DNA from: an uncultured Acidimicrobiia bacterium
GTDB lineage: Bacteria > Acidobacteriota > Terriglobia > Versatilivoradales > Versatilivoraceae
Length of the DNA: 64,000 nt
NCBI GenBank assembly: GCA_963786955.1
Contig: CAWBAT010000005.1
Span: 32,001-96,000, forward strand
Reading direction: 5' to 3'
Part shown: positions 30,239 to 55,985 of the stretch, piece by piece
How the letters are laid out: every line of letters begins with the position of its first letter
Numbering within the stretch: position 1 is the stretch's first letter
The notes under the pieces: generated by a model
What the model saw: the letters and a program-made list of their open reading frames with translations, nothing else
The model's database searches: none
What the model was told of the DNA's origin: nothing
Position numbers and translations under genes: made by a program

Positions 30239-32092
30239 CTACTTAGTAATTAGCTCACACCGGGGACGCACGCTTATGGACTTGAATTCTTTTAATTGGA
30301 CGAGCCCGGGCTTGGACCCTCTTGGTTTAGACACATACTTGCGTCGCGTATGATGCACCTCAACTTTATTGGCATTTCGGGCCTGACTAAAATAGGCGGC
30401 TACTTCCGCCGCTTCTCTGAGGGATTGTTGCGGCGCAGAATCCAACCTTTCTGGATTGCGTAAGACAACATGCGAGCCTCCATAATCGGCGACATGAAAC
30501 CAAAAATCATCCGGATTTGCCAATTTAAATGTCAGGACATCATTTTCACGGCTATTTTTCCCCACCCAGATTTCCATTCCATCGGTAGACGAAAAAATTC
30601 TGGCTGATTTCTTGATTGAAGTCAGTTCGGTCTGGGCTTTGTGACGGCGAACGGACCGGGTTCCAAACTTTGTAATTTCGGAAGAATTTTTTTTCATCTC
30701 TTTGGCTTGAGTCTGGGAGGGAGGTTCATCCAATGTTTCGCTCGCCTCAGCGGAACGAGCCAGGCGATCCAGGTGTAATTCAAGGTTTGAGATTTCCAAG
30801 TCCAGCGTGTCTATGCGTCTCTGGATCACGGGGATTGCACGATTGGCCTTTTGAAAGAGTCGGGCATAACGATTTGCATTCTCGATGAGACTGAGCTGGG
30901 GATTGAGAGGAATCTCGATTGCGTGCATTGCCGCATCAAACAAGTCCGGAATGGTCTTCTGGACACTTCCTTTTTGTGCCTTATCAGGTTGCGCATAGAG
31001 AAGATTGGAATATTTTTCAAAAATGCCATATCCCAAATTCTTCTGCAAGTCCTCGCCTAAACTCTTTTTGAGTCGAAGCTTCCTCTTAAGAGCCGCCGTC
31101 AGTTGAGATTTAAGAGTCTGTGCTTTCCTCTGAACCGGCCCAACAGCGCGTGAATTTTGAAATAGTTCAGTGGCCAGTTCATTCACAGTGGGAAAGATTT
31201 TATGGCGGCAAGAGGCAAGATGTTCCAAAGGAATTGGAGAGGGAACTTGTGGATGATGGCCCACAGGGCTGATTTCCATTGAATTTGCCAGTTCGGTCAG
31301 AGGGTCTGGCGTAAAGTAAATCCGAGGACTGAAAGGTCCCGCTGAAAAGCGCCGGCAGAGTGACTGAAACTCGGTCCACAAAGATTCAATTGTTAAGCAT
31401 CGCCTAAACTGCAATTCGTGTCTGAACGCTGGGGTAAGCCCTAATATCTGGGCCATTGGGTCAAGGCTCAAGGGTTGGAGGTTTGGGCCATGACTTTCCT
31501 CCCCCTCAGAGACTCGGGCGGTTGTTGCTAGGTTCAGGCCAACTTGGATGGTCTGTGTCCCGGTAAATAGACCTACAAATTGAGATTGGGTGATGTTGTC
31601 CACTTGATATTTGCCGACGGGGGGAACGTGCCGATAGGGGCTTTTCCCGCTTCCTCCGCTATCTGTAACGGGAAAAGCCGAGGCGATCACTTCATCGGAG
31701 GCATCGAGGAGGAACAAGTTGAGCCTATGAGGAATCAGTCGAATGACGAGTCGAAAACGCTCTGGCTGATTCGAGAGAGAAAGTTTCTCAACTTCTAGAA
31801 TAAGGACGCGATCGGCCGTTTCTTTGCTGAATTCAACCACTCTCCCACCTTGAACTTTCTTTCTTAGAATCATCAAAAAGTCTGAGGCCTCTGACTGCAA
31901 CGGAACCTCTCGATCCGAAAGGAAAAGGATTGGGGCGGTCGGGACCAGCGAGATAATAAAAGACTTGGGGGGTGCTGGGCGTAGACTGAGGACGAAGGTA
32001 GGATCTGACGAGCACCGAATTTTCTGGATCGAGCGATCGAGCAGCGCGGGACGAATTTCCCGAAAAAGTGCATTGAGACAAAGGTTATCCAT
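30239..32092 (-). CDS. rqcH: Rqc2/RqcH (FbpA/NFACT) ribosome quality-control protein
   Basis: NFACT-N start MDNLCL, IPLNPQLSLIENANRY, and NFACT-R VGKNSRENDVLT, FWFHV..GGSHV and AAYFS. Confidence 0.85.
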   Translation of the reverse strand: MDNLCLNALFREIRPALLDRSIQKIRCSSDPTFVLSLRPAPPKSFIISLVPTAPILFLSDREVPLQSEASDFLMILRKKVQGGRVVEFSKETADRVLILEVEKLSLSNQPERFRLVIRLIPHRLNLFLLDASDEVIASAFPVTDSGGSGKSPYRHVPPVGKYQVDNITQSQFVGLFTGTQTIQVGLNLATTARVSEGEESHGPNLQPLSLDPMAQILGLTPAFRHELQFRRCLTIESLWTEFQSLCRRFSAGPFSPRIYFTPDPLTELANSMEISPVGHHPQVPSPIPLEHLASCRHKIFPTVNELATELFQNSRAVGPVQRKAQTLKSQLTAALKRKLRLKKSLGEDLQKNLGYGIFEKYSNLLYAQPDKAQKGSVQKTIPDLFDAAMHAIEIPLNPQLSLIENANRYARLFQKANRAIPVIQRRIDTLDLEISNLELHLDRLARSAEASETLDEPPSQTQAKEMKKNSSEITKFGTRSVRRHKAQTELTSIKKSARIFSSTDGMEIWVGKNSRENDVLTFKLANPDDFWFHVADYGGSHVVLRNPERLDSAPQQSLREAAEVAAYFSQARNANKVEVHHTRRKYVSKPRGSKPGLVQLKEFKSISVRPRCELITK

Positions 32093-32666
32093 GATGCAGA
32101 AACTCAGGCCTTCTCAAAATTCGATAGAGCAATGAAACGGGCAATCCCACCACGTTAAAAAAACATCCTTCGATACCCTCGATAAAGCGTGCAGCCTTCC
32201 CTTGACTCGCATAGCCCCCAGCTTTATCAAATGGTTCGCCCGTCTCCAGGTAATCCTCAATTTCTTCCCCCGAGAGTTCAATGAACCTCACGATAGTGCG
32301 CGCGGCATCGACAACGACGGTTTCTCCTTTTAGAACACATAGCCCCGTAATGACTTCATGGGACCGGCCACTGAGCCTCTGGAGCATCCACCTCGCTGCT
32401 TCCGGGCTGCCCGGTTTCCCCAGGACATGACCTTCGCAGACAACGACCGTATCGGCACCGATGACTAAAGACTCAGGGCGGATAAGACGGATCGCCATGG
32501 CCTTTTCTTTGGCTAAACGCTGCACCATCTGGGAAGGAGATTCCCCCGGCTGCTGAAATTCTTCAATCTGACTGGGAATCACTTCAAAATTGCTGCACAA
32601 TAGGCCGAGCAAGTCCCGGCGTCGGGGAGAACTTGAAGCAAGAACCCAGGGTCTGTTTTCAATCAT
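32085..32666 (-). CDS. maf: Maf-family nucleoside triphosphate pyrophosphatase
   Basis: LASSSPRRRDLL, IGADTVV, LGKP, DKAGGY and NVVGLP. Confidence 0.95.
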   Translation of the reverse strand: MIENRPWVLASSSPRRRDLLGLLCSNFEVIPSQIEEFQQPGESPSQMVQRLAKEKAMAIRLIRPESLVIGADTVVVCEGHVLGKPGSPEAARWMLQRLSGRSHEVITGLCVLKGETVVVDAARTIVRFIELSGEEIEDYLETGEPFDKAGGYASQGKAARFIEGIEGCFFNVVGLPVSLLYRILRRPEFLHHG

Positions 32667-32749
32667 TTGTTTTCGTCCGTAAGTTTAGTTTACAAGTCCA
32701 AAAGCGGTATGATACAAAAACTTCTTAAGTCTTCTGCCGAAGGAGGGGG

Positions 32750-34138
32750 ATGAAAGATCTCAAGAGTGGTCTAAAAGTCATCATCTTGGTCCTGGTTTTA
32801 GCCGCCCTCGATGCCTCATTCGAGGCGCAAACCAAAGAAGCGCCGAATTCTGCTCCCGAAGCTTCCAGTTTCGATATCAGCATTTTTTTTACGGGGAACA
32901 TTCAAGGTAATATTGAACCTTGTGGCTGACCGCGCAATCCCGCGGGCGGTCTGGCTCGCCGTGCTCAGATTCTAAACGAAATTCACTCCGAATATCCGGA
33001 TAAGTTTAGGATAGAAGTGGAGATCGGGAATTACATGCAGAACCTTGGACCGGACCGGAGAGTGAAGAACAAATGGGTATTACAAGGTATGAAAAAACTG
33101 GGGGTTGAAATCCTGAACGTAGCCGAATCCGATATCGATGAACTCGAGGCTCAAGGGGTTGACTTCAATGCAGACGACCGATTTATTTCTGCGAATTTGA
33201 TCTCTTCCAAGACAAATTCTCCTCTCCTGAAACCATACCTTGTCAAGCAGATCGCCTTGCCAGAAACGCAAAAAAAATTCAGGCTCGGATTCTTGGGCCT
33301 CTCGGCGCGGGAAGGTTCCTACAAGACGGATAAGAAGGGTTATCTATGGGCCGATCCGATGGTAAGCGCCAAACAATGGATTCCAGAACTCCGGAAGAAA
33401 TGTGATTTTCTAATCCTTCTGGCCTGCATGCCTTCCAAAGACTCGGTACAATTGGCAGTCGATAATCCCGAGGTCGATGTTATTTTGAATGGTTTCAAGC
33501 ACCAGTGGAGTGACCCGCCCGCCAAGATCAATCAATCCACGATCATTTATGCAGAAGATGAAGGAAGAATTCTGGGTGAGTTGCGATTGCGTATCGCGGG
33601 GAAAGAAAAAGCGGAGGTGAATTCCGTCAATCATATCCTCACAAAAGTGGTGAAGGATGACCCCGAAATGGCCGCCTATGTAGCCCTTGCCAAAGAAGAA
33701 ATTACAGAACAACAGCGGATCCTGGCGAATGAGAAGCCTCTAATAACGGCCTCATCAGAACTTCGGGTCAACTCACCTTATCTCACCGCTAAGTCCTGTG
33801 AGAATTGTCACGCATCGGCTTACGAAGTATGGCAACACTCCAAGCATGCGAAAGCTATTGAAATTCTAAAGCAGGTGAAGAGAGAATTTGATTCATCCTG
33901 TGTGGGTTGCCATACGACCGGCAAGGGGAATGTCGGGGGATTCGTAGATCTCAATCAGACACCGGAATTGGCCAACGTCCAATGTGAGGCTTGCCATGGC
34001 CCGGGACAAGCCCATAGCGCCAAGCCGACCGAATCTAAAATGCTTAAACTCAATCCATCAGCCTGCTTGCAGTGCCACACAAGATCGAATAGTCCAGAAT
34101 TTGATTTTGCAACCTATTGGTCAAAAGTAAGACATTAG
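32750..34138 (+). CDS. Probable selenoprotein: signal peptide + UshA/5'-nucleotidase-like domain (C-G-U) + tetraheme cytochrome c (c554-like) domain
   Basis: RBS aggagggg + ATG 32750 is in frame with the tracked ORF at 33017. The only interruption is TGA at 32927-32929 (codon 60) in GNIEPCG-U-PRNPAGGLARRA. Four heme motifs follow: CENCH, CVGCH, CEACH and CLQCH. Confidence 0.85.
32930..32962 (+). promoter_or_regulatory. Bacterial SECIS-like hairpin immediately 3' of in-frame UGA
   Basis: Stem GCGGGC (32942-47) pairs with GCUCGC (32954-59), closing loop GGUCUG. It begins 12 nt after the UGA. The same apical GGUCUG sequence occurs in the E. coli fdhF SECIS. Confidence 0.75.
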
Positions 34139-44491: not shown

Positions 44492-45373
44492 TCAATCTTC
44501 TTTGAGCTTGACGTCTGCAGTAAACCTTCTAAATTCACGGAACTCAATCAAGTTACGAGAACTCAATCGATTCTGGTTTTCTCGAATCACGAGTTCCGCC
44601 GCTATGGGAAGAAGAAAGGACTGATTTTCCAATCCGGCTATGGCCCTATAACCATACTCAGTCGTGGTTTCTGAGTAGAGAATTGGAAAGTTTCTGGGGA
44701 GTTGGAGTGTATGTTGACTGATTCTGAGAATGCTCCGATTTCGTGCATCAACCCAAATCCTTCCCTGATAGGCCACCTTGAGTGAATATGAGTTCTTGTA
44801 GGATATTGTCCAGGCAGAACTTTCCCGAGGCACTGAGAATCCAATGACTACAGTCTGAACCCCTCGGAACTGCTCCTCTCCTTCTTTCCTAAATTTCGCC
44901 TGAGTTTCGGGAATGAAGAGTGAACGCAAGATACTGCCAAATTCCCCGATCGAAATCACATTACCAAGCGATTCAAAACGCTTGGTAACCGGCCTTCCAT
45001 TAATCTTGATGTTGGAGTAATTCTCCTGCTTTTGGTTATAGCCCAATTCGGATTCCACAATGTCCTGGCTTTGCCATTGATTGCCCCCAAGAGGATCCTT
45101 AAAGCGACGGGTGATCTGCCGGCAAATAAAATCTGGCAGATCGTCGGTGAACTGCAGCGCTCTCTTCCGGACATCGTTTAAGAAAGCATTCCATTCCGTT
45201 GTCTGAGCTTCCGCCGTGTTTGTTGCAAGGCGTGGCAGTTCCTGCGGAGATAAGAGGAGGAAAGCAAACAGATTAATCTGCTGTACCCCACAAATAAAAA
45301 AGGTTCTCAAGAATCTAGAAAGGAAATGTTGGGGTGTCGGGATATGAAGCGGCGGCTGTTGTCCTGGTTTCAT
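44492..45373 (-). CDS. Conserved hypothetical exported protein
   Basis: LPDFICRQITRR, SIGEFGSIL, GRIWVD and NLIEFREFRRF pattern in a long intact ORF; start uncertain. Confidence 0.7.
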   Translation of the reverse strand: MKPGQQPPLHIPTPQHFLSRFLRTFFICGVQQINLFAFLLLSPQELPRLATNTAEAQTTEWNAFLNDVRKRALQFTDDLPDFICRQITRRFKDPLGGNQWQSQDIVESELGYNQKQENYSNIKINGRPVTKRFESLGNVISIGEFGSILRSLFIPETQAKFRKEGEEQFRGVQTVVIGFSVPRESSAWTISYKNSYSLKVAYQGRIWVDARNRSILRISQHTLQLPRNFPILYSETTTEYGYRAIAGLENQSFLLPIAAELVIRENQNRLSSRNLIEFREFRRFTADVKLKED

Positions 45374-45507: not shown

Positions 45508-46218
45508 TTATGGGCAGGGACTCTGCCAAAGCGCGTGGCCAACAAAAAAAGGTCCGAGAGATTGGATAAATTCGGAGGTTTGGCGAGTCTTACGCATGGT
45601 CTGGACAATGTGTGAAAGGGGGTGAAGGTCCTTGCCAATTAGGCCAATCAAAAAATCGTTGTCGTGCGCATCCAGCCCGTGAGAAGCCAGTCGGATGTCG
45701 TGGGCGAGGTCGGCATCCCCGTAAGCTCTTCCTATTGTGCCATGTTCCTTCAAAATGCCGCCTTGCTCTTGAGGGGTTAACTTTGCGAAAGTTCCCGAGC
45801 GTCGCAGGGGATACCAAATAGCCCAGGGCCAAGAAGGATTCAGAGCCGTTCGCCGCGGTTTGTGCAAGAGCCAGTCTGCCAGATCCGGTTCATATCCGGA
45901 AGAGTAGGAGCGACCCATCATCGTGAATTCTAATTTTTGACTCAGGCTGCGGAAAGGGTCTGTATTCACAAGGTCCCTTAGGGTCGTTACAAAGAAGACG
46001 GGATCCTCGTGCATTGTGAGGAGCCCAACCCCTCGAGGATCGTTCACGTCCTGGTAGAGTACCGCCTGCGTGTGCCGCTGCTCCAGGGTTGAGGCCAGCT
46101 TTCCTGAATCCAAGCAGCCCCCAAATACTTGAAGTTGCATGAAAAGGCGACGGTCCAGTACTTGTTGGTTTGCACCGCGCTCTTGAACGTCCGTCTGACT
46201 TTCCAAAGTCTGAGACAT
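45508..46218 (-). CDS. Chlorite dismutase / coproheme decarboxylase (Cld/ChdC) family heme protein
   Basis: WYPLRR...EHGTIG proximal His region, HGLD..DNDF, MRKT..TS and GPFFVG. Confidence 0.85.
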   Translation of the reverse strand: MSQTLESQTDVQERGANQQVLDRRLFMQLQVFGGCLDSGKLASTLEQRHTQAVLYQDVNDPRGVGLLTMHEDPVFFVTTLRDLVNTDPFRSLSQKLEFTMMGRSYSSGYEPDLADWLLHKPRRTALNPSWPWAIWYPLRRSGTFAKLTPQEQGGILKEHGTIGRAYGDADLAHDIRLASHGLDAHDNDFLIGLIGKDLHPLSHIVQTMRKTRQTSEFIQSLGPFFVGHALWQSPCP

Positions 46219-46235: not shown

Positions 46236-46376
46236 CTAGGATCTCGTTTTTTGACCCAACCGTTCTTGGACTTGAGTTAAATCTTCCTGAACCCGGCGTT
46301 GCCGTTGGGAGAGGCTAAAAATGTAGCCGAATAGTAAAATCCAAATCGCTGAGTACGCGGCAAACAAATAATTCAT
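46236..46376 (-). CDS. ccmD: Heme exporter protein CcmD (not in ORF track)
   Basis: Manual translation MNYLFAAYSAIWILLFGYIFSLSQRQRRVQEDLTQVQERLGQKTRS (46 aa); overlaps the ccmC stop. Confidence 0.85.
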   Translation of the reverse strand: MNYLFAAYSAIWILLFGYIFSLSQRQRRVQEDLTQVQERLGQKTRS

Positions 46377-47089
46377 AAGGTCCCCCTTCTTTGGGTTTCT
46401 AATTGTCGCTGCAAGGCTTCAACGGCCTCTTGTGAACTCTCCAGATCAGTCCGAATTCTCCACAAGTAGAAATACAAGAAAGTAAATGCGGCGAGTGAGA
46501 GAAAGAAAGCGATTTTCATATGGGGATCGAGTCCCGAACCCTGGCCTCCTGCCATGACCGGGGAAGGATGCTGTGTCCGCCACCAGCGATTAGACATGTA
46601 AACAATCGGGACATCTATCGCCCCAAGGATTCCGAAAATGGCCGACAACCTGGCCCGTTGTTCCGGAGCCTCGATCAGGCGTCGAAGCATGATGTAGCCC
46701 ATATAGATCAGCCAAAGGACGAACATCGACGTTAGCCGCGGGTCCCAAGTCCACCAAATTCCCCATACGGGTTTCGCCCAGAGGGGCCCAGTGACCAGCA
46801 CGATGGTGGCGAAAATAGCGCCGACTTCGGCAGCGGCGGCCGCCTTAATGTCCATCTTTCGCGTTCCTGTTATTAAGAAAAGAGCGCTATAAACAAAAAC
46901 GGAAAGGATGGCCAGGAAACAGATCCAGGCTGAAGAAACGTGGAAATAGAAGATCCTTTGCACGTCGCCCATGGAAGCCTCGGTAGGCGCGTAGAGAAAA
47001 ATTGCGTAGATGGCGCAGAGCATCGTAACAAAGGTTAAGAGTGCCAGGACTTTCTGTGATTTCACTTCAGCCTCCTTCAGAAAAGTCAT
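46373..47089 (-). CDS. ccmC: Heme exporter protein CcmC
   Basis: RIFYFHV, WWD motif WAKPVWGIWWTWDPRLT and WWRTQHP. Confidence 0.95.
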   Translation of the reverse strand: MTFLKEAEVKSQKVLALLTFVTMLCAIYAIFLYAPTEASMGDVQRIFYFHVSSAWICFLAILSVFVYSALFLITGTRKMDIKAAAAAEVGAIFATIVLVTGPLWAKPVWGIWWTWDPRLTSMFVLWLIYMGYIMLRRLIEAPEQRARLSAIFGILGAIDVPIVYMSNRWWRTQHPSPVMAGGQGSGLDPHMKIAFFLSLAAFTFLYFYLWRIRTDLESSQEAVEALQRQLETQRRGTL

Positions 47090-47193
47090 CCCCCCATTCC
47101 ATGTGCACGGGCGATGGCCGGGAGCCAATTCTCCAATGACGCACCCCAAAGCCGAAGGGTCACTCTGGTTGATCCCCTCCAGTTTCTCATTTT

Positions 47194-47871
47194 TTATTCC
47201 TCTAATACAAAATCAAATAGAAGGAAAGGGAGGGTCACGAAGATCACATTGTAGACTACAAGAAATCTCAACCAGAATCCTAACGCTTCGCCTGGGGGAT
47301 CCGTAAAGACCGCGGCGGTGGATTCCACTGCCCCAACAACGGCTGGCAAAACGACGGGAATGAGCAACACTGGTAGCATGACCTCACTCATCCGGGTGTT
47401 CATGGCAATAGCGGACAGAATGGTGCCCACGGAGACAAAGGCGAGAGTCCCCAGAAGGGTAATCAGCGACAACCAGCCAATCCTTGGCAACAAATCAAAG
47501 TTAAAAAACAATGCGAAACAGAGAAGAATAACGCCGTCTGCGATCAGCATGAAAACTAAGTTGGCCAACATCTTACCTAAGAAAATAGTGCCCCAGCCTG
47601 TTGGAGCCATCAGCAAACCCTGCAGGGAATCGTTCTCCCTCTCTCCGGCAAAAGATCGATTCAATCCCAGTATCCCAGCAAAAATAAAGGTCATCCAGAG
47701 AAGTCCAGGACCGAATCTTTCCGTTTCCTGGCCATCCGGTTCAAAAGCAAAGTGAAACATCAAGATGACCAGCAGCCCAAACATCAACATAGACGTCAAG
47801 GCATCCTTTGTCCGGTATTCGATCAGGACATCTTTCCAGAAGATGGTAAACGATTGGCTAAGAAATTTCAC
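47194..47871 (-). CDS. ccmB: Heme exporter protein CcmB
   Basis: WKDVLIEYRT, FAGEREND.LQGL and LPVLLIP. Confidence 0.95.
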   Translation of the reverse strand: MKFLSQSFTIFWKDVLIEYRTKDALTSMLMFGLLVILMFHFAFEPDGQETERFGPGLLWMTFIFAGILGLNRSFAGERENDSLQGLLMAPTGWGTIFLGKMLANLVFMLIADGVILLCFALFFNFDLLPRIGWLSLITLLGTLAFVSVGTILSAIAMNTRMSEVMLPVLLIPVVLPAVVGAVESTAAVFTDPPGEALGFWLRFLVVYNVIFVTLPFLLFDFVLEE

Positions 47872-48595
47872 GTGGGCGCTCTCTTAGGAATCTCTTGTAT
47901 TTTTCGCGAACCGAAGCATAGCCTTCCCTCATTTCCTCCACAATCCTCCCGTGCTCAACGATGGCCCACCGCCCTGCGCCATCCAGGCCTTGTTCCAAAT
48001 CGTGCGTTGCCATGATTACCGTTTTTTGATTCCCTACAAAATCCTTAAGCCACTCCCCCAACAACTCAGCGGCTTCGAAATCCAGGCCCGCGAACGGCTC
48101 ATCCAGTAGCAAGATTTCCGGACCGTGAAGAACGGCTCTCGCTATCGCCAGCCGTTGCTGCATTCCTCGAGAAAACCCACCTATTTGACGATGAGCCTGC
48201 TTCTCGAGCCCAACCCAGTGCAATGTTTCCTGGATGCGGCCCTCAGGATGCCGCATTTGATACAGCTTGGCGAAAAATAAGAGGTTCTCGAAGGCGGTTA
48301 AATGACGATAGAGAAAGCTGCTATGGGCCACAAATCCGAGACGAGAACGGATTTTTTCGGGATTCTTGAGCACGTCGATTCCGCACACGTACACTCTGCC
48401 TACATTAGGTTTAACAATTCTAGCGATTACCCGAAGTAAGGTGGATTTTCCCGCCCCGTTTCGCCCCAGAAAAACGACGAAATCTCCTGGATGAACAGTC
48501 AGGCTAACTCCCTGAAGAGCGACCGTATGCCCGAACCATTTCTCGACGTGTTCAACCTGAACGCAGGGCTGTGCCTGATGATTTGGAGATTTCAT
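47858..48595 (-). CDS. ccmA: Heme ABC exporter ATP-binding protein CcmA
   Basis: GRNGAGKST, FSRGMQQR and LLLDEP; directly upstream of ccmB. Confidence 0.9.
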   Translation of the reverse strand: MKSPNHQAQPCVQVEHVEKWFGHTVALQGVSLTVHPGDFVVFLGRNGAGKSTLLRVIARIVKPNVGRVYVCGIDVLKNPEKIRSRLGFVAHSSFLYRHLTAFENLLFFAKLYQMRHPEGRIQETLHWVGLEKQAHRQIGGFSRGMQQRLAIARAVLHGPEILLLDEPFAGLDFEAAELLGEWLKDFVGNQKTVIMATHDLEQGLDGAGRWAIVEHGRIVEEMREGYASVREKYKRFLRERPREIS

Positions 48596-48627
48596 GGAAA
48601 AAATGTTTGTCCGCTAAGTCCAAAGGG

Positions 48628-48761
48628 TAGCCACGATCAATCCCAAGGGGATTGATCGTGGGCCTTTTCAATCAGGTAGAATTTACTTGGACAAATAAGA
48701 TCTAAAATGCGGATACCTAAAACCTACGATGAACGAAGAAATCGCTTTCATCGTGGCTACC
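48628..48761. repeat. GTAG-type REP doublet in inverted orientation
   Basis: GTAGCCACGATCAATCCC..GGGATTGATCGTGG followed by the inverse CTACGATGAA...TTCATCGTGGCTAC. Confidence 0.7.
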
Positions 48762-48872
48762 AGAATATGTATATGCCGAGACTTGCCGGACAGCCAAATG
48801 TTTTCCGTATATGAACGCGCCAAATCCCTGGGGAATTGAAGATTTCTGCATGCGGAGTCCAATATCTCCTCT

Positions 48873-49988
48873 TTATCCTCGCTTGCGTTTCAGTTCCGTC
48901 TTGGACTGGGCTTTCTGCCATAAGGCAAAACCCAGCGCCAATGCGAACAAACCACCAAAACCTGCGAGGATATAATTCTTCATCTCGAAAACCGGGTTCG
49001 CGAGACGAACCACCTTAATCCCGGAAGTGTCTGGTTCTTGTTCCATACCTTCCGCCGAGCCCTTTTCATTCTCCTCGGAAACTTGTGGAGCATCCCCTGA
49101 GATTCTGAAACTCAATTGAGCTTCCTTCCCGGCCGAGACAACTTCGTAAGAGGCTGCTTTGGTAAGGGAATCCGGACCGGTTGGTTTTATCCCCTGGCCT
49201 GTGAGCTGAAGATCAGCCGGAAGGACCAGCAATCGGATTTTTTCCGGGCCGTAGAAAAACCGCTGTTTGAAATCTCGCTGATTGGTTGGATAGTTTACCT
49301 TGTAGGAAATCCTGATTTCATTAACCCCAGGCTTCATCGGAGAATGAACCGCATACCCGCCCTCCTTGCGCAGGGTAGGTTTCTGAGGCAGTGGAATTCC
49401 GGCAAGACCCACGACCGCTACACTGAGTTCGCTGACTAGGTCGGGAGTGGGAGTATCAAACAGAAACGTTCCGCCTGGAAGTACCAACGTCTTCTTGGGA
49501 TCCTTTTCGTTCGTGAACAGGTATTGCTGCTGAACAAAAAGTTGATTGCCACTTGCCTGAGCCAGCATCACGGGTAAAGAAACCCGGATTCCTTCCATAC
49601 TCTCGGTCGGTTCGTAAACGACCAATCTCACGGGAGCACTCAGATTCTGATCCGGCGTAATCGTGAGGTTGTAATTCACGCCATGATAGATTGCACGCAG
49701 CAACCAGTGCGGGGTTTGGACCCCTTCTGCCAGGGTAAAATGAAATTGACCATTGACGTTCGTTAAAGTATCCGAATTATTTTGCATGCCTTCACCGAGC
49801 ACTAGCAATTCCACCTTTTGACTGGGAACAGGATGATTGTTCGTACCGTTAATGAGCACGCCCTGCAAGGCTCTTTCGGCGCAAAGGTCGGCAGATGAAG
49901 CCAGGCAACCGAGGAAAGAAAGGAAGCAGAGAAAATATCGAACCAGCCAAGAAGAGGTCCTTGCGGCAAGAGGGTTATTAGGATTCAT
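48873..49988 (-). CDS. Hypothetical exported beta-sandwich protein with C-terminal TM anchor, within ccm operon
   Basis: Signal peptide, GVLINGT...TNVNGQFHF carboxypeptidase-regulatory-like start, and a C-terminal TM helix with basic tail. Confidence 0.7.
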   Translation of the reverse strand: MNPNNPLAARTSSWLVRYFLCFLSFLGCLASSADLCAERALQGVLINGTNNHPVPSQKVELLVLGEGMQNNSDTLTNVNGQFHFTLAEGVQTPHWLLRAIYHGVNYNLTITPDQNLSAPVRLVVYEPTESMEGIRVSLPVMLAQASGNQLFVQQQYLFTNEKDPKKTLVLPGGTFLFDTPTPDLVSELSVAVVGLAGIPLPQKPTLRKEGGYAVHSPMKPGVNEIRISYKVNYPTNQRDFKQRFFYGPEKIRLLVLPADLQLTGQGIKPTGPDSLTKAASYEVVSAGKEAQLSFRISGDAPQVSEENEKGSAEGMEQEPDTSGIKVVRLANPVFEMKNYILAGFGGLFALALGFALWQKAQSKTELKRKRG

Positions 49989-50026
49989 TCACAACCAATC
50001 GATTTGCTGAGATTTTCACGGGTGAG

Positions 50027-50386
50027 CTATTTCTTGGACTTTTTGCTACTCTTAAGAACTGCCACAACTTTGGACTCCCCCGGGCTCTGGAGACTTTCAG
50101 GCTTTAAGGATTCGATCTCACGCATGATTTGGTAAGCCTCGTGACTGAATTCTTCGCGTAAACGCTCATAGTCAAGTTCAGAAAGCTTGCCCATTTTATA
50201 TTCAAACTCAAGGTCTTTGATGTTTTCGTAGATTCTCTCTTTCCTTCTATGGAGACGTTTTAGAGGGCTCGGGTTCCCTTCCAGGCTTCCCATAAATGGA
50301 TTCTTCGCCGTAGCCAACATGGGGCGAAACACAAGCAACAAGGTCGCCAAGGTAACAAGAGAACAAACAATATAAACCGAAGTCAT
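50027..50386 (-). CDS. CcmI-N-terminus-like small membrane protein
   Basis: TM helix then IKDLEFEYKMGKLSELDYERL; located after ccmH. Confidence 0.65.
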   Translation of the reverse strand: MTSVYIVCSLVTLATLLLVFRPMLATAKNPFMGSLEGNPSPLKRLHRRKERIYENIKDLEFEYKMGKLSELDYERLREEFSHEAYQIMREIESLKPESLQSPGESKVVAVLKSSKKSKK

Positions 50387-50405
50387 CCTTGTCCTTCCGA
50401 TTCAA

Positions 50406-50933
50406 TCAAGAATCGAAGTCTTTCAGTTCCTTCTCAATCTGCTGCTGATAGGGTTCCGGGACAGCAGGGGCTGCACCATGACCTTCCACCGCCAAGGCCG
50501 GTTTCCGCCGAGCCCATACCCGGATCAGGAAGTACACTAGCACAAAACCAAGGAACAGCATCACAAACGGCATAGTCCAGGCCGTCAAATCAAACCCATG
50601 CGTCGTTGGGGCACTCAAAATCAAATTACTATACTTCGAAACAAAGATGTCCCGAATCTGCTGCCGGCTTTTTCCTTCTTTCAGATAGGCGGCTATTTCC
50701 TGTTGGAGTGGAACTCCTGACTCGCAATTGACCATTCCGCAAGCGTTGAGCTGATGATTACAGCCGCATTGGCAAACAAAATCTTCAGCCACTTTCTTAA
50801 CTTCGGGCGAAAAAGCCTGAGCGTACACAAGTGGGACAGATCCCATCACCAGAAGGATGAATATGGAAAATACCTGTCGGTATGTCCTTCCAGACGTAAG
50901 ATTTTGAAAGCACCAAGAAAATTGCATCTGCAC
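50406..50933 (-). CDS. ccmH: Cytochrome c biogenesis protein CcmH (Cys-rich variant)
   Basis: Signal peptide, CQCGC...C....C, GKSRQQI...KY...ILSAP, AWTMPF and a TM helix. Confidence 0.85.
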   Translation of the reverse strand: MQMQFSWCFQNLTSGRTYRQVFSIFILLVMGSVPLVYAQAFSPEVKKVAEDFVCQCGCNHQLNACGMVNCESGVPLQQEIAAYLKEGKSRQQIRDIFVSKYSNLILSAPTTHGFDLTAWTMPFVMLFLGFVLVYFLIRVWARRKPALAVEGHGAAPAVPEPYQQQIEKELKDFDS

Positions 50934-50944
50934 CGCACCACAGA

Positions 50945-52978
50945 CTACGCCTTTATGAGGAGTTCCTTGACATCCAGTTTGACTTCCTGCTCTTTCCGTA
51001 AGGTCTTTTCATGCCGGTCGGGAAGCAGACAAATCAATGTTCCCACCATAAATACAAAAGCCCCTAGCCAAACCCAGGCGACCAGAGGGTTCAGAAAGAC
51101 GTGAATAATCGCTCGACTTCCGTCCTGATTGAAACCCAGAACCACATACAGATCCTCTTTCAAGGTCGAGCGCAAAGCGACTTCGGTGGTCGCTTGTTCA
51201 CTGGAACGATAGAAGCGACGTTCAGGCTTCAACGTCTTAATCTCTTTTCCGTCTCGATAAACCTTGATGATGCCCACTTCAGAAACAAAGTTGGCATTTT
51301 CCGTTTCCTTAATATCCTGCAGTTTCAGCGTATAGCCGCCAATCTCAACTTTGTCGCCCTTCACCATTTCTTTCTGAACTTCACGATTAAACCCGGAACC
51401 TGCAAACCCTACGAAGAGGAATACCATTCCCATATGCACGACGTAACCACCGTAACGACGCGTGTTACGAAAGGTCAGAATCCAAAGCGCCTGTGCATAG
51501 CTTTCTCCTTGCCGGCGGCGAGCCACCGCACCTCGATGAAACTCAGCCAGGATCGTGCAAGCCACAAACACGCACAGGACCAGGCACATAAAGGAATAGA
51601 AATTTCGCATGCCAAAAACTAAAAATAAAATTCCAACCACAACTGAGACGAGGGTAGGCATTGTGAAATTTCTTCGCAAGCTTTGCACAGAGGTCTTCCG
51701 CCAGGCCAGTAATGGCCCAACGCCAGTCAAGAAAAGCAGGAAGAGTCCTATCGGCACTTCTACTTTATTGTAAAAGGGTGCGCTGACCGTCCGTTTTTCA
51801 TTTTGGAAAAACTCGGAAATGATCGGGAAGATAGTCCCCCACAGTACCGCAAACATGGAACCGAGCAATGCTAAGTTGTTGAAGAGGAAGCTGCTTTCGC
51901 GAGAGACCACGGAGTCGAGGCGATTTTCACTTTTCAGAGCGTCGAGCCGCGTCAGCAAAAGGTAGAGACAAGACCCAATCAAAATGAACAGGAAGCTCGA
52001 AAAGAAGGGGCCGATCGGAGACTGGGCAAAAGCATGGACCGAAGAAACAATACCACTTCGAGTTAAGAACGTCCCAAAGATGCAGAGCAAGAAGGTCGAT
52101 AAGATAAGAACCATATTCCAAATCTTCATCATCCCCTTGCGCTCTTGCATGATAACCGAATGGAGAAACGCCGTGGCCGTCAACCAGGGCATCAATGAAG
52201 CGTTCTCTACTGGATCCCACCCCCAGTAGCCTCCCCAGCCTAATACCACGTAAGCCCATTTGGCACCTAAGAGAACCCCGATGCCCTGAAAAAGCCAGGG
52301 GACCATCATCCAGCGGCGAGTAATTCGAATCCATTCGTCGTCTAGGTCACGCGTGATCAAGGCCGCGATAGCGAATGCAAATGGGATCGTGAATCCGACA
52401 TACCCGGTATAGAGGACAGGGGGATGAATCACCATGGCCCAATATTGCAGCAGGGGATTGAGTCCCCTCCCATCCATGGGCGTAAATGGAGTGGCTGCCG
52501 CTCCTGCCCGGATTACACCAATCTGGTCAAAGGGGTTAGCCACAAAGTTGTTCAAGAGCAAAAAAAAGCCGGCAACTATGGCAATCACGCCAACCACATA
52601 AGGCATGAGATGACGGTTTCTCTTCCGATTCTGCATTACGGTTATAAAGGCGTAAATGCATAGAATCCAGCACCAGAAGACCAGCGACCCTTCTTGCCCA
52701 CCCCAAAGAGCTCCAAACTTGTAATACCAGGGCATGGCCCGGCTACTGTTTTGAGCTACAAATTGAAGGTTAAAATTGTTACTTAACAGTTGATACCAAA
52801 GTGAGAAAACGGTGAGCGTCACAAGGATGGACATTGCGATCACTGAATTTTCAGCGGTTTCGACTAATCGCCGGTGTCCTATTGCCCCCCCCAGAAATGA
52901 TCCGACAGCAGCATAACAGGCAAGGCAAAAAGCAAATAATAAACAGAATTGCCCGAAATCACTGACTAAGGTGAGCAT
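50945..52978 (-). CDS. ccmF: Cytochrome c heme lyase CcmF
   Basis: WGGQEGS, GLNPLLQ, HPP, WAYVVLGWGGYWGWDPVENA, RSG..SVHAF and RRYGGYVVH. Confidence 0.97.
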   Translation of the reverse strand: MLTLVSDFGQFCLLFAFCLACYAAVGSFLGGAIGHRRLVETAENSVIAMSILVTLTVFSLWYQLLSNNFNLQFVAQNSSRAMPWYYKFGALWGGQEGSLVFWCWILCIYAFITVMQNRKRNRHLMPYVVGVIAIVAGFFLLLNNFVANPFDQIGVIRAGAAATPFTPMDGRGLNPLLQYWAMVIHPPVLYTGYVGFTIPFAFAIAALITRDLDDEWIRITRRWMMVPWLFQGIGVLLGAKWAYVVLGWGGYWGWDPVENASLMPWLTATAFLHSVIMQERKGMMKIWNMVLILSTFLLCIFGTFLTRSGIVSSVHAFAQSPIGPFFSSFLFILIGSCLYLLLTRLDALKSENRLDSVVSRESSFLFNNLALLGSMFAVLWGTIFPIISEFFQNEKRTVSAPFYNKVEVPIGLFLLFLTGVGPLLAWRKTSVQSLRRNFTMPTLVSVVVGILFLVFGMRNFYSFMCLVLCVFVACTILAEFHRGAVARRRQGESYAQALWILTFRNTRRYGGYVVHMGMVFLFVGFAGSGFNREVQKEMVKGDKVEIGGYTLKLQDIKETENANFVSEVGIIKVYRDGKEIKTLKPERRFYRSSEQATTEVALRSTLKEDLYVVLGFNQDGSRAIIHVFLNPLVAWVWLGAFVFMVGTLICLLPDRHEKTLRKEQEVKLDVKELLIKA

Positions 52979-53097
52979 AACTCATAATCCTTACTCTGAA
53001 ATAGATTTGATGGAATTGAAATGGCAGCTACTAACGCGAGCGCAAACAGAGTGTCAGGTTTTCTCTATTGCAATCTAACAAGTCGATCGATGCTTAC

Positions 53098-53508
53098 TTA
53101 ACTCTTTCCCGGTTTCGTATAGCTGGCTTCGTATTTAGAAGCGCATTTTGCCTGGATTTTAAGGGCCTCGAAGCTTCCATCGGCCTTCAAATGCCCTTCG
53201 GCCAAAGCCTGGGCTCCGTCTTTGAAGGTGTCCGGCAGAAGATCCTTTCCTATGTATCGGACAGGAAGGATTTCACCCTTTTGCTCCAGTCTGAAATTCA
53301 CCCCACCTGGAACCTGCTCAATGCTTCCGTTGACAACATTTCCAGCCACCCGCAGACGTTTGTTGAAAGCCTCACCCTTCATTTGCCTGAGTTCATCAAC
53401 TGTTTTGTAGTAAGCGAGACTTTCATTGAAACCACTGAAGCCAAGCCAAATAATGGCCCCAACAATGATCAGACTTCCCACCAGGAATTTAATTGCCCGT
53501 TGATTCAT
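53098..53508 (-). CDS. ccmE: Heme chaperone CcmE, CxxxY type
   Basis: YY.TV.E, LRVAG.V, LPDTFKDG and AKCASKY. Confidence 0.93.
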   Translation of the reverse strand: MNQRAIKFLVGSLIIVGAIIWLGFSGFNESLAYYKTVDELRQMKGEAFNKRLRVAGNVVNGSIEQVPGGVNFRLEQKGEILPVRYIGKDLLPDTFKDGAQALAEGHLKADGSFEALKIQAKCASKYEASYTKPGKS

Positions 53509-54047: not shown

Positions 54048-55985
54048 ATGATAGAAACACGAAAAACCATCTGCAATCGTGATTGTCCTGACGCCTGCAG
54101 TATTGTCGCCACTGTTGAGGATGGGAGAGTGACGAAGATACGCGGAGACAAGGAACACCCCGTCACACGCGGGTTCCTCTGTTATCGGACCAGTCTCTTT
54201 CTCTCAACCCAATACTCTGCAGACCGAATCAAAACCCCGCTCTTGCGCCATAACGGAAAATTCCATCCGATCACCTGGGATGAAGCATTGGATATGGCTG
54301 TCGATCGATTGACGCGGATTCGAAACGAATCCGGGCCAGCGGCGATTTTTCACTACCGGAGCGGGGGCTCACTCGGCATGTTGAAACTTTTGTGCGACTA
54401 CTTTTTCGAGCAGTTTGGCCCTGTGACGATCAAGCGCGGGGACATCTGTTCCGGAGCGGGAGACGCTGCTCAGGAGCTCGACTTCGGTGAAGAGGACAGT
54501 CATGACCTCTTCGATCTCCTCAATTCGAAAAATATCGTGCTCTGGGGGAAGAACGTCTTCACTTCCAGCCCTCACATCGTTCCAGTCCTCATGGATGCCA
54601 AGGCGAAAGGTGCGAAACTGATTCTGATTGATCCGGTCTCCCACAAAACAACCAATCTCTGTGAAAGATTCATCCAGCCGCGTCCAGCCAGTGATTTTGC
54701 GTTGGCGATGGCGGTTGCTCAAATTCTTTTTCGTGAGGGCTGGACGGATCCAGAGGCGTCAAAGTACTGTGAGCACTTCGATGAATTTCGAATACTCGCT
54801 GCCCGGAAGACCCTAGGCGAGTGGTGCGAAGAGGCCGATGTCTCTCCCGAAGTAGCTCTGGACCTGGCCCGGCGTCTGGGGCTCGAAAAACCGACGGCGA
54901 TTTTGGTAGGTTGGGGGATGGGTCGGCGGAGAAATGGAGGAGCAATCGTTCGGGCTCTCGATGCACTTTCATCGATCTCCGGCAATATTGGAATCCCCGG
55001 TGGAGGTGTTTCATTCTATTTTAAACGCCGTGGCGCCTTTGACCTCTCTTTTGTCAAGGGTGAGACCATTGCGCCGCGAACGGTCTGTGAACCTCTGTTT
55101 GGACCGGAAATTCTGAAGATGGATGATCCACCCGTCCGGGCCGTCTGGGTCACCGCCGGGAACCCGGTCGTGATGCTGCCGGAATCGTGGACAACTGTTC
55201 AGGCCTTAAGCTCTCGGGAATTCGTCGTTGTGGTCGATTCATTCCTCACCGACACGGCACGGCTAGCCCATTTGGTTTTGCCCACGACTACCTTGCTGGA
55301 GGATGACGATCTGCTGGGCGCCTACGGCCATCACTGGATTGGGGCATCCACGCCGGTGGTTCAACCTCCTGAGGGAGTCAAAACTGACCTGGAGATCATG
55401 CAAGGCTTAGCAACACGAGTAGGATTGAGCCACCTCATGGCTGGATCAGCACGAGAGTGGAAGCAGCGGCTGATTGCCTCCAAACTCAAACCGCGAGGTG
55501 TGACATTAGAAAAGCTTGAGCAGGGTGCCGTTCGCAACCCAATTCCTCCGAAAATTCTCTTCGAAGACCGGCGTTTCCCTACCCCCTCTGGCCGGGTCAA
55601 CTTGATCACAGAAAGCCCCGCTCCCAGTGAATCATGCTCCGAATTTCCTCTTTCCCTCATGTCAATATCGACGGAGAAGTCTCAGTCATCACAATGGGCG
55701 ATGAAACAAGACGGTTACGCCGTTGCCACAATTCATCCAGAGACCGTGCCGGAAATACCTGATGGAGAACTGGCTCGTCTCGAGTCGGCTGTTTCCTCAA
55801 TTGTCGTCCGAATTCACCACGATTCCAGGCAACGCCGGGACATCGTCCTGATCCCTAAAGGGGGCCACCTCCATGCGGGTCGCTGTGCCAATGCGCTCTT
55901 GCGCGCGCGGACAACCGACATTGGTGAAGGCGGTGCCCTTTACGATGAACGCGTCAGAATTGTTCAACTGCAAGAGAGTATCTAA
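54048..55985 (+). CDS. Molybdopterin-dependent oxidoreductase with N-terminal 4Fe-4S domain
   Basis: CNRDCPDAC...GFLC, ICSGAG, LWGKN, DTARLAHLVLP, FPTPSG and a C-terminal molydop-binding domain. Confidence 0.92.
   Translation: MIETRKTICNRDCPDACSIVATVEDGRVTKIRGDKEHPVTRGFLCYRTSLFLSTQYSADRIKTPLLRHNGKFHPITWDEALDMAVDRLTRIRNESGPAAIFHYRSGGSLGMLKLLCDYFFEQFGPVTIKRGDICSGAGDAAQELDFGEEDSHDLFDLLNSKNIVLWGKNVFTSSPHIVPVLMDAKAKGAKLILIDPVSHKTTNLCERFIQPRPASDFALAMAVAQILFREGWTDPEASKYCEHFDEFRILAARKTLGEWCEEADVSPEVALDLARRLGLEKPTAILVGWGMGRRRNGGAIVRALDALSSISGNIGIPGGGVSFYFKRRGAFDLSFVKGETIAPRTVCEPLFGPEILKMDDPPVRAVWVTAGNPVVMLPESWTTVQALSSREFVVVVDSFLTDTARLAHLVLPTTTLLEDDDLLGAYGHHWIGASTPVVQPPEGVKTDLEIMQGLATRVGLSHLMAGSAREWKQRLIASKLKPRGVTLEKLEQGAVRNPIPPKILFEDRRFPTPSGRVNLITESPAPSESCSEFPLSLMSISTEKSQSSQWAMKQDGYAVATIHPETVPEIPDGELARLESAVSSIVVRIHHDSRQRRDIVLIPKGGHLHAGRCANALLRARTTDIGEGGALYDERVRIVQLQESI

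Follow-up and report, generated by a model that had tools for sequence, protein, structure and literature searches.

Does the open reading frame at positions 32750-34138 (plus strand) of the DNA analysed here end at the TGA codon that interrupts it, or is this codon read as selenocysteine (Sec), and what might the resulting protein do? The DNA, hereafter the window, is a stretch of 64,000 nucleotides from a contig of an uncultured bacterium (CAWBAT010000005.1, assembly GCA_963786955.1). A first-pass annotation of its sequence had proposed a hidden selenoprotein at this locus, in which an exported UshA-fold domain with a Cys-Gly-Sec motif (C-G-U) is fused to a tetraheme cytochrome c. Our analysis of the sequence and its relatives indicates that 32750-34138 is very likely one gene, encoding an exported UshA-like selenoprotein of 462 residues. 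The UGA at codon 60 is almost certainly decoded as selenocysteine, and if only the identity of the protein as a real selenoprotein is considered, the comparisons below leave us in little doubt.

The in-frame TGA codon and the stretch downstream of it

Gene calling with translation table 11 splits the region into a 59-codon open reading frame (ORF; 32750-32929) and a 373-codon ORF that starts at the GTG at 33017. The first-pass annotation had pointed out that the 373-amino-acid (aa) product lacks a leader yet carries four CxxCH motifs, and that a single TGA separates it from an in-frame ATG with a ribosome-binding site. Both points agree with our reading of the sequence: the product of the 373-codon ORF begins with MEIGNYMQ, without a hydrophobic leader, all four motifs could be located, and the frame that opens at the ATG at 32750, preceded by a Shine-Dalgarno-like stretch, is continuous up to a TAG stop codon at 34136-34138. 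Its sole internal stop is the TGA of codon 60 (32927-32929), flanked as EPCG-TGA-PRNPAGGLARRA, and read-through translation revealed no frameshift and no further stop within the 462 codons. The N-terminus of the long frame, MKDLKSGLKVIILVLVLAAL, has basic residues and then a hydrophobic run of 11 residues, and a hydrophobic segment also opens the proteins of the relatives in the alignment. It may be a cleaved signal or an N-terminal anchor. As covalent heme attachment by system I occurs outside the cytoplasm, the protein must be exported, and the export leader is present in the long frame only, not in the 373-aa form.

To compare codon 60 across relatives we used the read-through product as query in a protein search, which yielded 561 relatives. 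Among the matches listed, all 68 relatives at 46-99% identity are annotated as proteins of 259-392 aa and cover at most 84% of the query; such short public calls are what a restart of the gene caller past a shared TGA would produce. Three further aligned rows begin with MGGLARR, immediately past the motif. Where the window has C-G-TGA, 24 of the 24 aligned full-length relatives (about 30-36% identity) have C-G-C, within a strongly conserved block. Loci in genomes provided a second comparison. Matches were found in 106 of 401 genomes of the same phylum (a tally that includes two flagged genomes), and the non-self loci from these carried TGA at this column in 24 of 29 cases and a Cys codon in five; this count includes L033, from an unpublished genome, without which it becomes 23 of 28 and on which no claim depends. 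When the best 80 of the at least 562 loci in named genomes were examined, 61 had TGA and 19 a Cys codon (two of these Cys assignments are doubtful regex matches, and one locus is ambiguous). The alternation of Cys and TGA expected by the first-pass annotation is therefore seen in proteins and in genomes alike, and no relative examined has anything but TGA or a Cys codon in this column. Within the window's own clade, TGA is present in all 23 distinct sequences. In a FastTree phylogeny of 107 rows (84 Sec, 23 Cys), the Sec/Cys label changes at least nine times, with five changes forced by well-supported branches, and the 20 rows of the window's clade are all Sec. This tree left out loci L033, L093, L061, L064, L136 and L139, and kept two pairs of identical rows that stem from overlapping collections. 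An in-frame UGA that aligns to Cys, with both flanks conserved, is the pattern by which a bacterial selenoprotein is recognised, and it is the pattern found here.

The TGA was also kept in seven of seven metagenome contigs, at identities of 98, 88, 73, 49-50 and 39% to the window, and the coding sequence upstream of it was conserved in all of them, as the first-pass annotation would have it. Because the same TGA occurs in seven independently assembled contigs, a base-call error is excluded. We give virtually no credence to the broader explanation that the TGA arose as an error of sequencing or assembly, or that a recent mutation has inactivated the gene and left a pseudogene: the mere presence of a stop codon is all that speaks for it, whereas the codon recurs in these contigs, throughout the own-clade sequences and in most of the named-genome loci, and the 462 codons are otherwise undamaged. 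Among sequencing runs, 22 were found, mostly of sediment metagenomes, and two DNA and two RNA runs were compared as assembled contigs. One low-depth contig of 156 nucleotides (nt) from a DNA run spans the TGA, near the contig's own end. Contigs from the RNA libraries cover 32700-32857 and 32974-33269; the TGA lies outside both, and they constitute neither a check of the base call nor proof of transcription.

Two side observations arose from these comparisons. Locus L131 apparently holds two family members: a motif with TGA lies near position 221, and the main match is to a full-length copy of the Cys type. The two may be tandem paralogues. Four own-clade records (L070, L071, L080 and L084) bear the label Acidimicrobiia, whereas the labels of their closest relatives read Acidobacteriota or Terriglobia; these bins may be mislabelled.

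Decoding of UGA as selenocysteine calls for selA, selB, selD and tRNA-Sec, and the first-pass annotation had named their presence as a check. A profile search of the genome found selA (540 bits), selB (364 bits) and selD (382 bits), all above the curated cut-offs, and tRNA-Sec (68.7 bits), which ARAGORN also reported as tRNA-SeC with anticodon tca. They are located on different contigs (C8, C4, C2 and C5 of genome G000) or far apart, with no single sel operon. TGA terminates 13 of the 33 open frames of at least 250 codons in the window, and hence is no general sense codon. It remains to weigh whether the TGA is simply a true stop, so that the product would be a 373-aa cytochrome translated from the GTG at 33017, perhaps together with a 59-residue peptide from 32750-32929. 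Table 11 does yield both ORFs, and the 68 relatives mentioned above are recorded at similar lengths, but automatic callers produce truncated calls at any Sec codon. The 373-aa form would have no export signal although its hemes need to be attached in the periplasm, and it would start in the middle of the UshA fold, past the first strand and helix of the AlphaFold model. Together with the conservation of the coding sequence upstream of the TGA down to 39% identity and the Cys found in place of the TGA in homologues, this makes a true stop very improbable.

In bacteria the apical loop of the selenocysteine insertion sequence (SECIS) is expected 16-37 nt after the UGA, according to a published range (PMC10778597). 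The first-pass annotation had placed a SECIS-like hairpin within 32927-32970, and we find a candidate at 32942-32959, inside this interval; its stem begins 12 nt and its loop 18 nt past the UGA, the latter falling within the expected range. In the window's own clade the stretch past the TGA is almost invariant, the consensus fold of 23 distinct sequences is this same hairpin, and 99.3% of the cells are paired. The stretch is also the most constrained of the gene at synonymous sites. In 19 full-length own-clade genes, the mean entropy of four-fold degenerate sites is 0.70 bits in codons 61-72 and 1.48 bits over 29 such sites outside them; 20,000 permutations produced no value as low, and the eight 12-codon windows of lowest entropy in the gene all begin at codons 56-66.

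Several results count against assigning a SECIS role to this hairpin. It never varies within its own clade, so that counting pairs gives no support and covariation is lacking, and its conservation could partly stem from the very conserved peptide that it encodes. Its folding energy is unremarkable, with z = 0.03 for 32920-32990 and z = -1.16 for 32940-32961, where 25 of 200 shuffles fold equally well; folding energy alone was uninformative and was dropped as evidence for a SECIS. A scan of 32880-33020 against Rfam (E up to 10) reported no SECIS family, the only match being a chance one to hsp17 (E 5.2).

Distant Sec-type relatives have a hairpin of their own, with a stem of 7-8 bp and a triloop, which starts about 20 nt past the UGA, eight columns further on than that of the window's clade (alignment columns 33-51, corresponding to 32950-32968 of the window). 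It is paired in 88.8% of cells as against 79.4±1.4% in shuffled alignments (none of 500 reaches this value) and 27-56% when the partners are slid, and it displays real covariation, with three pairs altered on both sides. These alignments suggest that the UGA is followed by different, though overlapping, hairpins in two branches of one selenoprotein family. Applying the distant register to the window's clade gave a weak result (63.6% paired compared with 60.9% in shuffles, and a U·U mismatch in the window), and this register was set aside for the clade; in the mixed alignment the own-clade hairpin is likewise weak (67.8% vs 65.3%). The Cys-type locus L039 retains the distant-clade hairpin, which other Cys-type loci have lost.

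Family relationships

The best match of the protein in NCBIfam is NF041198 (UshA_like_PCGU). That UshA-like CxU selenoproteins had been predicted before was already stated in the first-pass annotation, and this match, along with the published listings, accords with it. The protein shares with the family the P-C-G-U motif, here E-P-C-G-U at residues 56-60 (P-C-G-[U/C] in the family), the alternation of Sec and Cys, the UshA-like N-domain and the heme domain. Its two-domain architecture is that of the 519-position profile, positions 11-276 of which match the N-domain and positions 357-518 residues 297-453; in the genome search the two halves scored 133.4 and 115 bits. What speaks against plain membership is the total score, 259.6 bits with Cys in place of Sec, which falls short of the cut-off of 275. 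Nine of nine full-length relatives that were tested also lie below this cut-off (203-267 bits), and the group, mainly Acidobacteriota, is therefore regarded as a sister branch with the same architecture. The gene is, judging from its sequence, a sub-threshold and publicly mis-called addition to a known family of predicted selenoproteins.

A second family of UshA-like selenoproteins with Sec near the N-terminus, NF049981 (UshA_like_Sel_2), differs in having a CxxU motif where the present protein has CxU, and it matches residues 44-136 only, with 31.5 bits against a cut-off of 140. The fusion of UshA-like and heme domains had been put forward in the first-pass annotation. Both domains are indeed present, but the combination is not special to this gene: it is standard in NF041198, a mostly Sec-type family, and at the at least 562 genome loci, which span several phyla.

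In the literature the family appears as the UshA-like CxU entry (COG0737) of Zhang & Gladyshev (2008; PMC2398784), with 76 Sec-type and 92 Cys-type sequences from the Global Ocean Sampling data. UshA-like CxU selenoproteins are also listed in a 2022 review (PMC9312934), and a 2026 review (PMC13188914), which cites the 2008 paper, lists the family under NF041198. The family listings of these three papers do not mention hemes, and neither 'heme' nor 'cytochrome' occurs in the text of PMC2398784. Our literature searches retrieved no paper on a fusion of selenocysteine, multiheme and nucleotidase elements, nothing relevant, among the papers listed, on an Acidobacteria selenoprotein with cytochrome c554, and, for NF041198, the 2026 review alone.

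The position of the branch just below the curated cut-off has a practical consequence: its members are held in public records as N-terminally truncated, signal-less "multiheme cytochromes", as the gene calls of the close relatives of the window's protein illustrate. Records truncated in this way lack both the predicted catalytic motif and the export signal. The locus overturns nothing known; it may offer a concrete entry point to the biochemistry of a possible new type of periplasmic selenoenzyme.

Fold, hemes and candidate chemistry

The AlphaFold model has a mean predicted local distance difference test score (pLDDT) of 75 and is confident over residues 40-330 (mostly 84-98). Its top Foldseek matches are 3ivd, 1oie, 1ush and 2wdc (E about 1e-18 to 1e-17), that is, UshA of E. 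coli, other 5'-nucleotidases and SoxB of Thermus, and a profile search of PDB sequences found 5'-nucleotidases (E 4e-26), cytochrome c554 (1bvb, E 2.2e-19) and SoxB (E 2e-9). The UshA fold claimed by the first-pass annotation is borne out by these matches, but the His ligands of the nucleotidases have been lost. Compared with UshA, 5'-nucleotidase and CpdB (1ush, 3ivd, 4h2i), the N-domain has the same fold, with a Foldseek template modelling (TM) score of about 0.5 over about 320 columns, and keeps the GG-AR helix as well as the Gly of the GD motif. It differs in that the His ligands are not conserved, the Cys-Gly-Sec is inserted in the loop past strand 1, and the C-terminal nucleotide-binding domain is replaced by the tetraheme domain.

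The motifs DxH, GD, GNH, H and GH of 5'-nucleotidases are what we take to be the ligands of the dimetal centre. In the alignment to the 5'-nucleotidase 5h7w, the DAGD, GNHE, LGHS and GGH of the enzyme stand opposite DTGD, GERE, LLAN and AAH in the family. At positions 52, 226 and 249, which align to His ligands, His is present in at most 28% of 107 family sequences. The window's protein has N50 and Q52, E91 and N94 (N94 at the GD aspartate), A125-E126-S127-D128 in place of G-N-H-E, C226 and F249; positions 50 and 52 were assigned to motif I by inference, being outside the part aligned with 5h7w. The set of dimetal ligands that defines a calcineurin-like metallophosphoesterase is absent. Pfam recognises only the heme part of the protein: PF02872, the C-terminal substrate-binding domain of 5'-nucleotidases, is missing from the eight families reported for the long protein at E up to 0.1, the heme domain standing in its place, and the Metallophos family PF00149 is not reported at that threshold either.

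Conservation in the N-domain is concentrated elsewhere. Just past the Sec loop, in the same 107 sequences, G66 and G67 are conserved in 100%, R70 in 99% and R71 in 97%, followed by N149 (92%), D219 (91%), D243 (88%) and E56 (81%). None of the N-domain residues conserved in at least 80% (E56, C58, U/C60, R70, R71, N149, D219 and D243) is a classical His ligand.

The comparison with the SoxB thiosulfohydrolase (2wdc) bears on the same question. SoxB is a periplasmic enzyme with a dimanganese site, and its pathway also uses c-type cytochromes. The fold is shared, and the protein matches the SoxB family TIGR04486 weakly, with 34.8 bits (E 5.6e-9) against a cut-off of 550, far from membership; no Sox genes were seen beside the selenoprotein gene. 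One may ask whether the N-domain has remained a metal-dependent hydrolase like UshA or SoxB, acting on a nucleotide or a sulfur ester, with Sec and the hemes as accessories. The fold and the weak SoxB match are in line with this, as is the D that some relatives keep at positions 50, 91 and 94. We nevertheless regard a retained hydrolase as improbable: the scarcity of His at the three ligand positions in the family and its absence from all three in the window's protein, the two phosphoesterase families that Pfam does not report, the distance from the SoxB cut-off and the lack of any classical ligand among the well-conserved residues all point the other way.

The C-terminal domain, in which the first-pass annotation had recognised a tetraheme cytochrome c, is of the c554 type. 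It matches PF13435 (Cytochrome_C554) with 65.1 bits, above the cut-off of 20.8, over residues 349-417, and its CxxCH motifs, at 33797-33811, 33899-33913, 33983-33997 and 34064-34078, are 99-100% conserved. Cytochrome c554 itself (1bvb/1ft5) also has four c-type hemes; the domain here, of about 118 residues, aligns to the first ~100 of its 211 residues and, unlike c554, is fused to an enzyme-like domain. The score for the cytochrome CycA family NF043010 is 47.3 bits, compared with a cut-off of 400. Besides the CxxCH motifs only three His are conserved in the heme domain (H366 in 100%, H422 in 99% and H462 in 96%), and in the 107 sequences there is no conserved Met. The downstream Ccm operon that had been named as the source of heme maturation is present as well: ccmC, ccmB, an ABC ATPase at the ccmA position, ccmH, ccmF and ccmE, which constitute system I, lie at 46373-53508 on the minus strand.

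What our analysis adds to the description of the family is the loss of the His ligands, the signature formed by C-G-U and R-R, the presence of three conserved His for four hemes, and two hairpin positions. These results narrow the hypotheses on function, as the metal site of the nucleotidases is gone, the C-G-U and R-R residues are invariant, and four hemes are accompanied by three conserved candidates for distal His.

Putting these elements together, we tentatively favour a scheme in which a Cys/Sec redox pair at a vestigial metal site is wired to four hemes. Decoding of the UGA at codon 60 by the genome's SelA/SelB/SelD/tRNA-Sec system, aided by the hairpin at 32942-32959, has strong support; the protein would be exported by means of its hydrophobic N-terminus, and the Ccm system encoded 14-21 kb downstream would supply the four covalent c-type hemes, both as expected from established knowledge. 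The nucleotidase-fold domain would no longer act as a dimetal phosphoesterase. Instead, the loop past its first strand, where the fold usually has its metal site, would carry Cys58-Gly-Sec60 beside Arg70-Arg71, and Cys58 and Sec60 could form a redox-active selenol/thiol (selenenylsulfide) centre for a small extracytoplasmic substrate, probably an anion. Electrons might then pass through the four hemes to or from a periplasmic electron-transfer pool. The first-pass annotation had suggested thiols, metals or metalloids as conceivable substrates.

A number of observations argue against this scheme. Confidence in the AlphaFold model is low at the Sec loop, with pLDDT below 50 at residues 60-63, and throughout the heme domain. 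Some acidic residues of the old site persist (D/E91 in 91%, D/E128 in 99%, as well as D219 and D243), which makes a single metal site possible. The genes next to the locus are housekeeping genes and point to no substrate.

The Cys/Sec motif may instead serve as a ligand and not as a free redox pair. It could occupy the sixth coordination position of the one heme for which no distal His is conserved, or it could contribute, along with acidic residues that have survived, to a new mononuclear metal site; catalysis would then take place at that heme or metal. Cys-ligated catalytic hemes occur in SoxAX and TsdA. The mismatch between four CxxCH motifs and three further His, with no Met to make up the number, would fit the first variant, and the conservation of E56 along with that of the four acidic positions just listed would fit the second. 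However, the fourth heme may simply be five-coordinate or be bound by a residue that is not invariant, and Y456, conserved in 83%, could be its ligand instead. We consider a ligand role rather unlikely.

The redox pair of the favoured scheme and a heme that it ligates could also be combined, although this is quite doubtful. The protein would in that case represent an uncharacterised class of extracytoplasmic selenoenzymes that has lost the dimetal centre and holds an Arg-flanked Cys-Gly-Sec loop against the heme lacking a conserved distal His. Sec or Cys58 would ligate or gate this heme, and Se-S or S-S chemistry would be performed on an oxyanion, for example thiosulfate, sulfite or selenite. 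Comparable heme-coupled chemistry is found in SoxAX and TsdA, whose fold is unrelated.

Neighbouring genes and feature coordinates

The features of the gene are collected in Table 1.

Table 1. Features of the predicted selenoprotein gene; positions are those of the window.
Feature	Position	Strand	Basis and remarks
Full predicted selenoprotein gene	32750..34138	+	462 codons and stop, TGA codon 60 as Sec; translation with TGA read as U leaves one open frame
Putative Shine-Dalgarno-like, purine-rich stretch AAGGAGGGGG	32740..32749	+	Abuts the ATG at 32750; read from the sequence
Probable N-terminal export signal or membrane anchor, about residues 1-26	32750..32827	+	K2, K5 and K9, then VIILVLVLAAL; helix 4-25 in the AlphaFold model
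UshA/5'-nucleotidase/SoxB-fold domain, about residues 41-330	32870..33739	+	Foldseek and PDB profile search; metal-ligand motifs degenerate
C58-G59-U60 motif	32921..32929	+	Predicted Sec codon TGA at 32927-32929; C, G and C/U each 100% in 107 sequences
Candidate SECIS hairpin GCGGGC-GGUCUG-GCUCGC	32942..32959	+	6 bp stem, 6 nt loop, -10.9 kcal/mol
G66-G67-L-A-R70-R71	32945..32962	+	Follows the Sec loop immediately; may bind an anion
Tetraheme c-type cytochrome domain, about residues 345-462	33782..34135	+	PF13435 and four CxxCH

In the window the gene is accompanied by genes for NFACT, Maf, DciA, and GatC and GatA of GatCAB. The Maf-like gene (32085-32666, minus strand) lies upstream in divergent orientation; of the 35 related loci in which the sequence extends about 1 kb or more upstream, 29 show this arrangement. 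In the set of 80 named loci, it adjoins the selenoprotein gene almost only in those labelled Acidobacteriota; we accordingly read the adjacency as lineage synteny and rejected Maf as a functional partner. In the window, as in several relatives, the gene is followed by DciA. At the loci outside Acidobacteriota (L109-L147) the surroundings are different: a conserved set of neighbours, all on the same strand as the gene, with an LptD-like ORF and an HU-type DNA-binding protein upstream and a protein with an RNase T-type exonuclease domain downstream, was seen at 16-18 loci. These cross-phylum neighbours are all of the housekeeping kind, with no redox partner among them.

Further ORFs surround the ccm cluster. 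Within or beside it, on the minus strand, is an ORF of the chlorite-dismutase family (45508-46218), and two minus-strand ORFs without a Pfam match lie at 44492-45373 (293 aa) and, between the ccmA-like gene and ccmH, at 48873-49988 (371 aa). Just past ccmE, on the plus strand, a molybdopterin oxidoreductase with an N-terminal Fe4S4 domain is encoded at 54048-55985.

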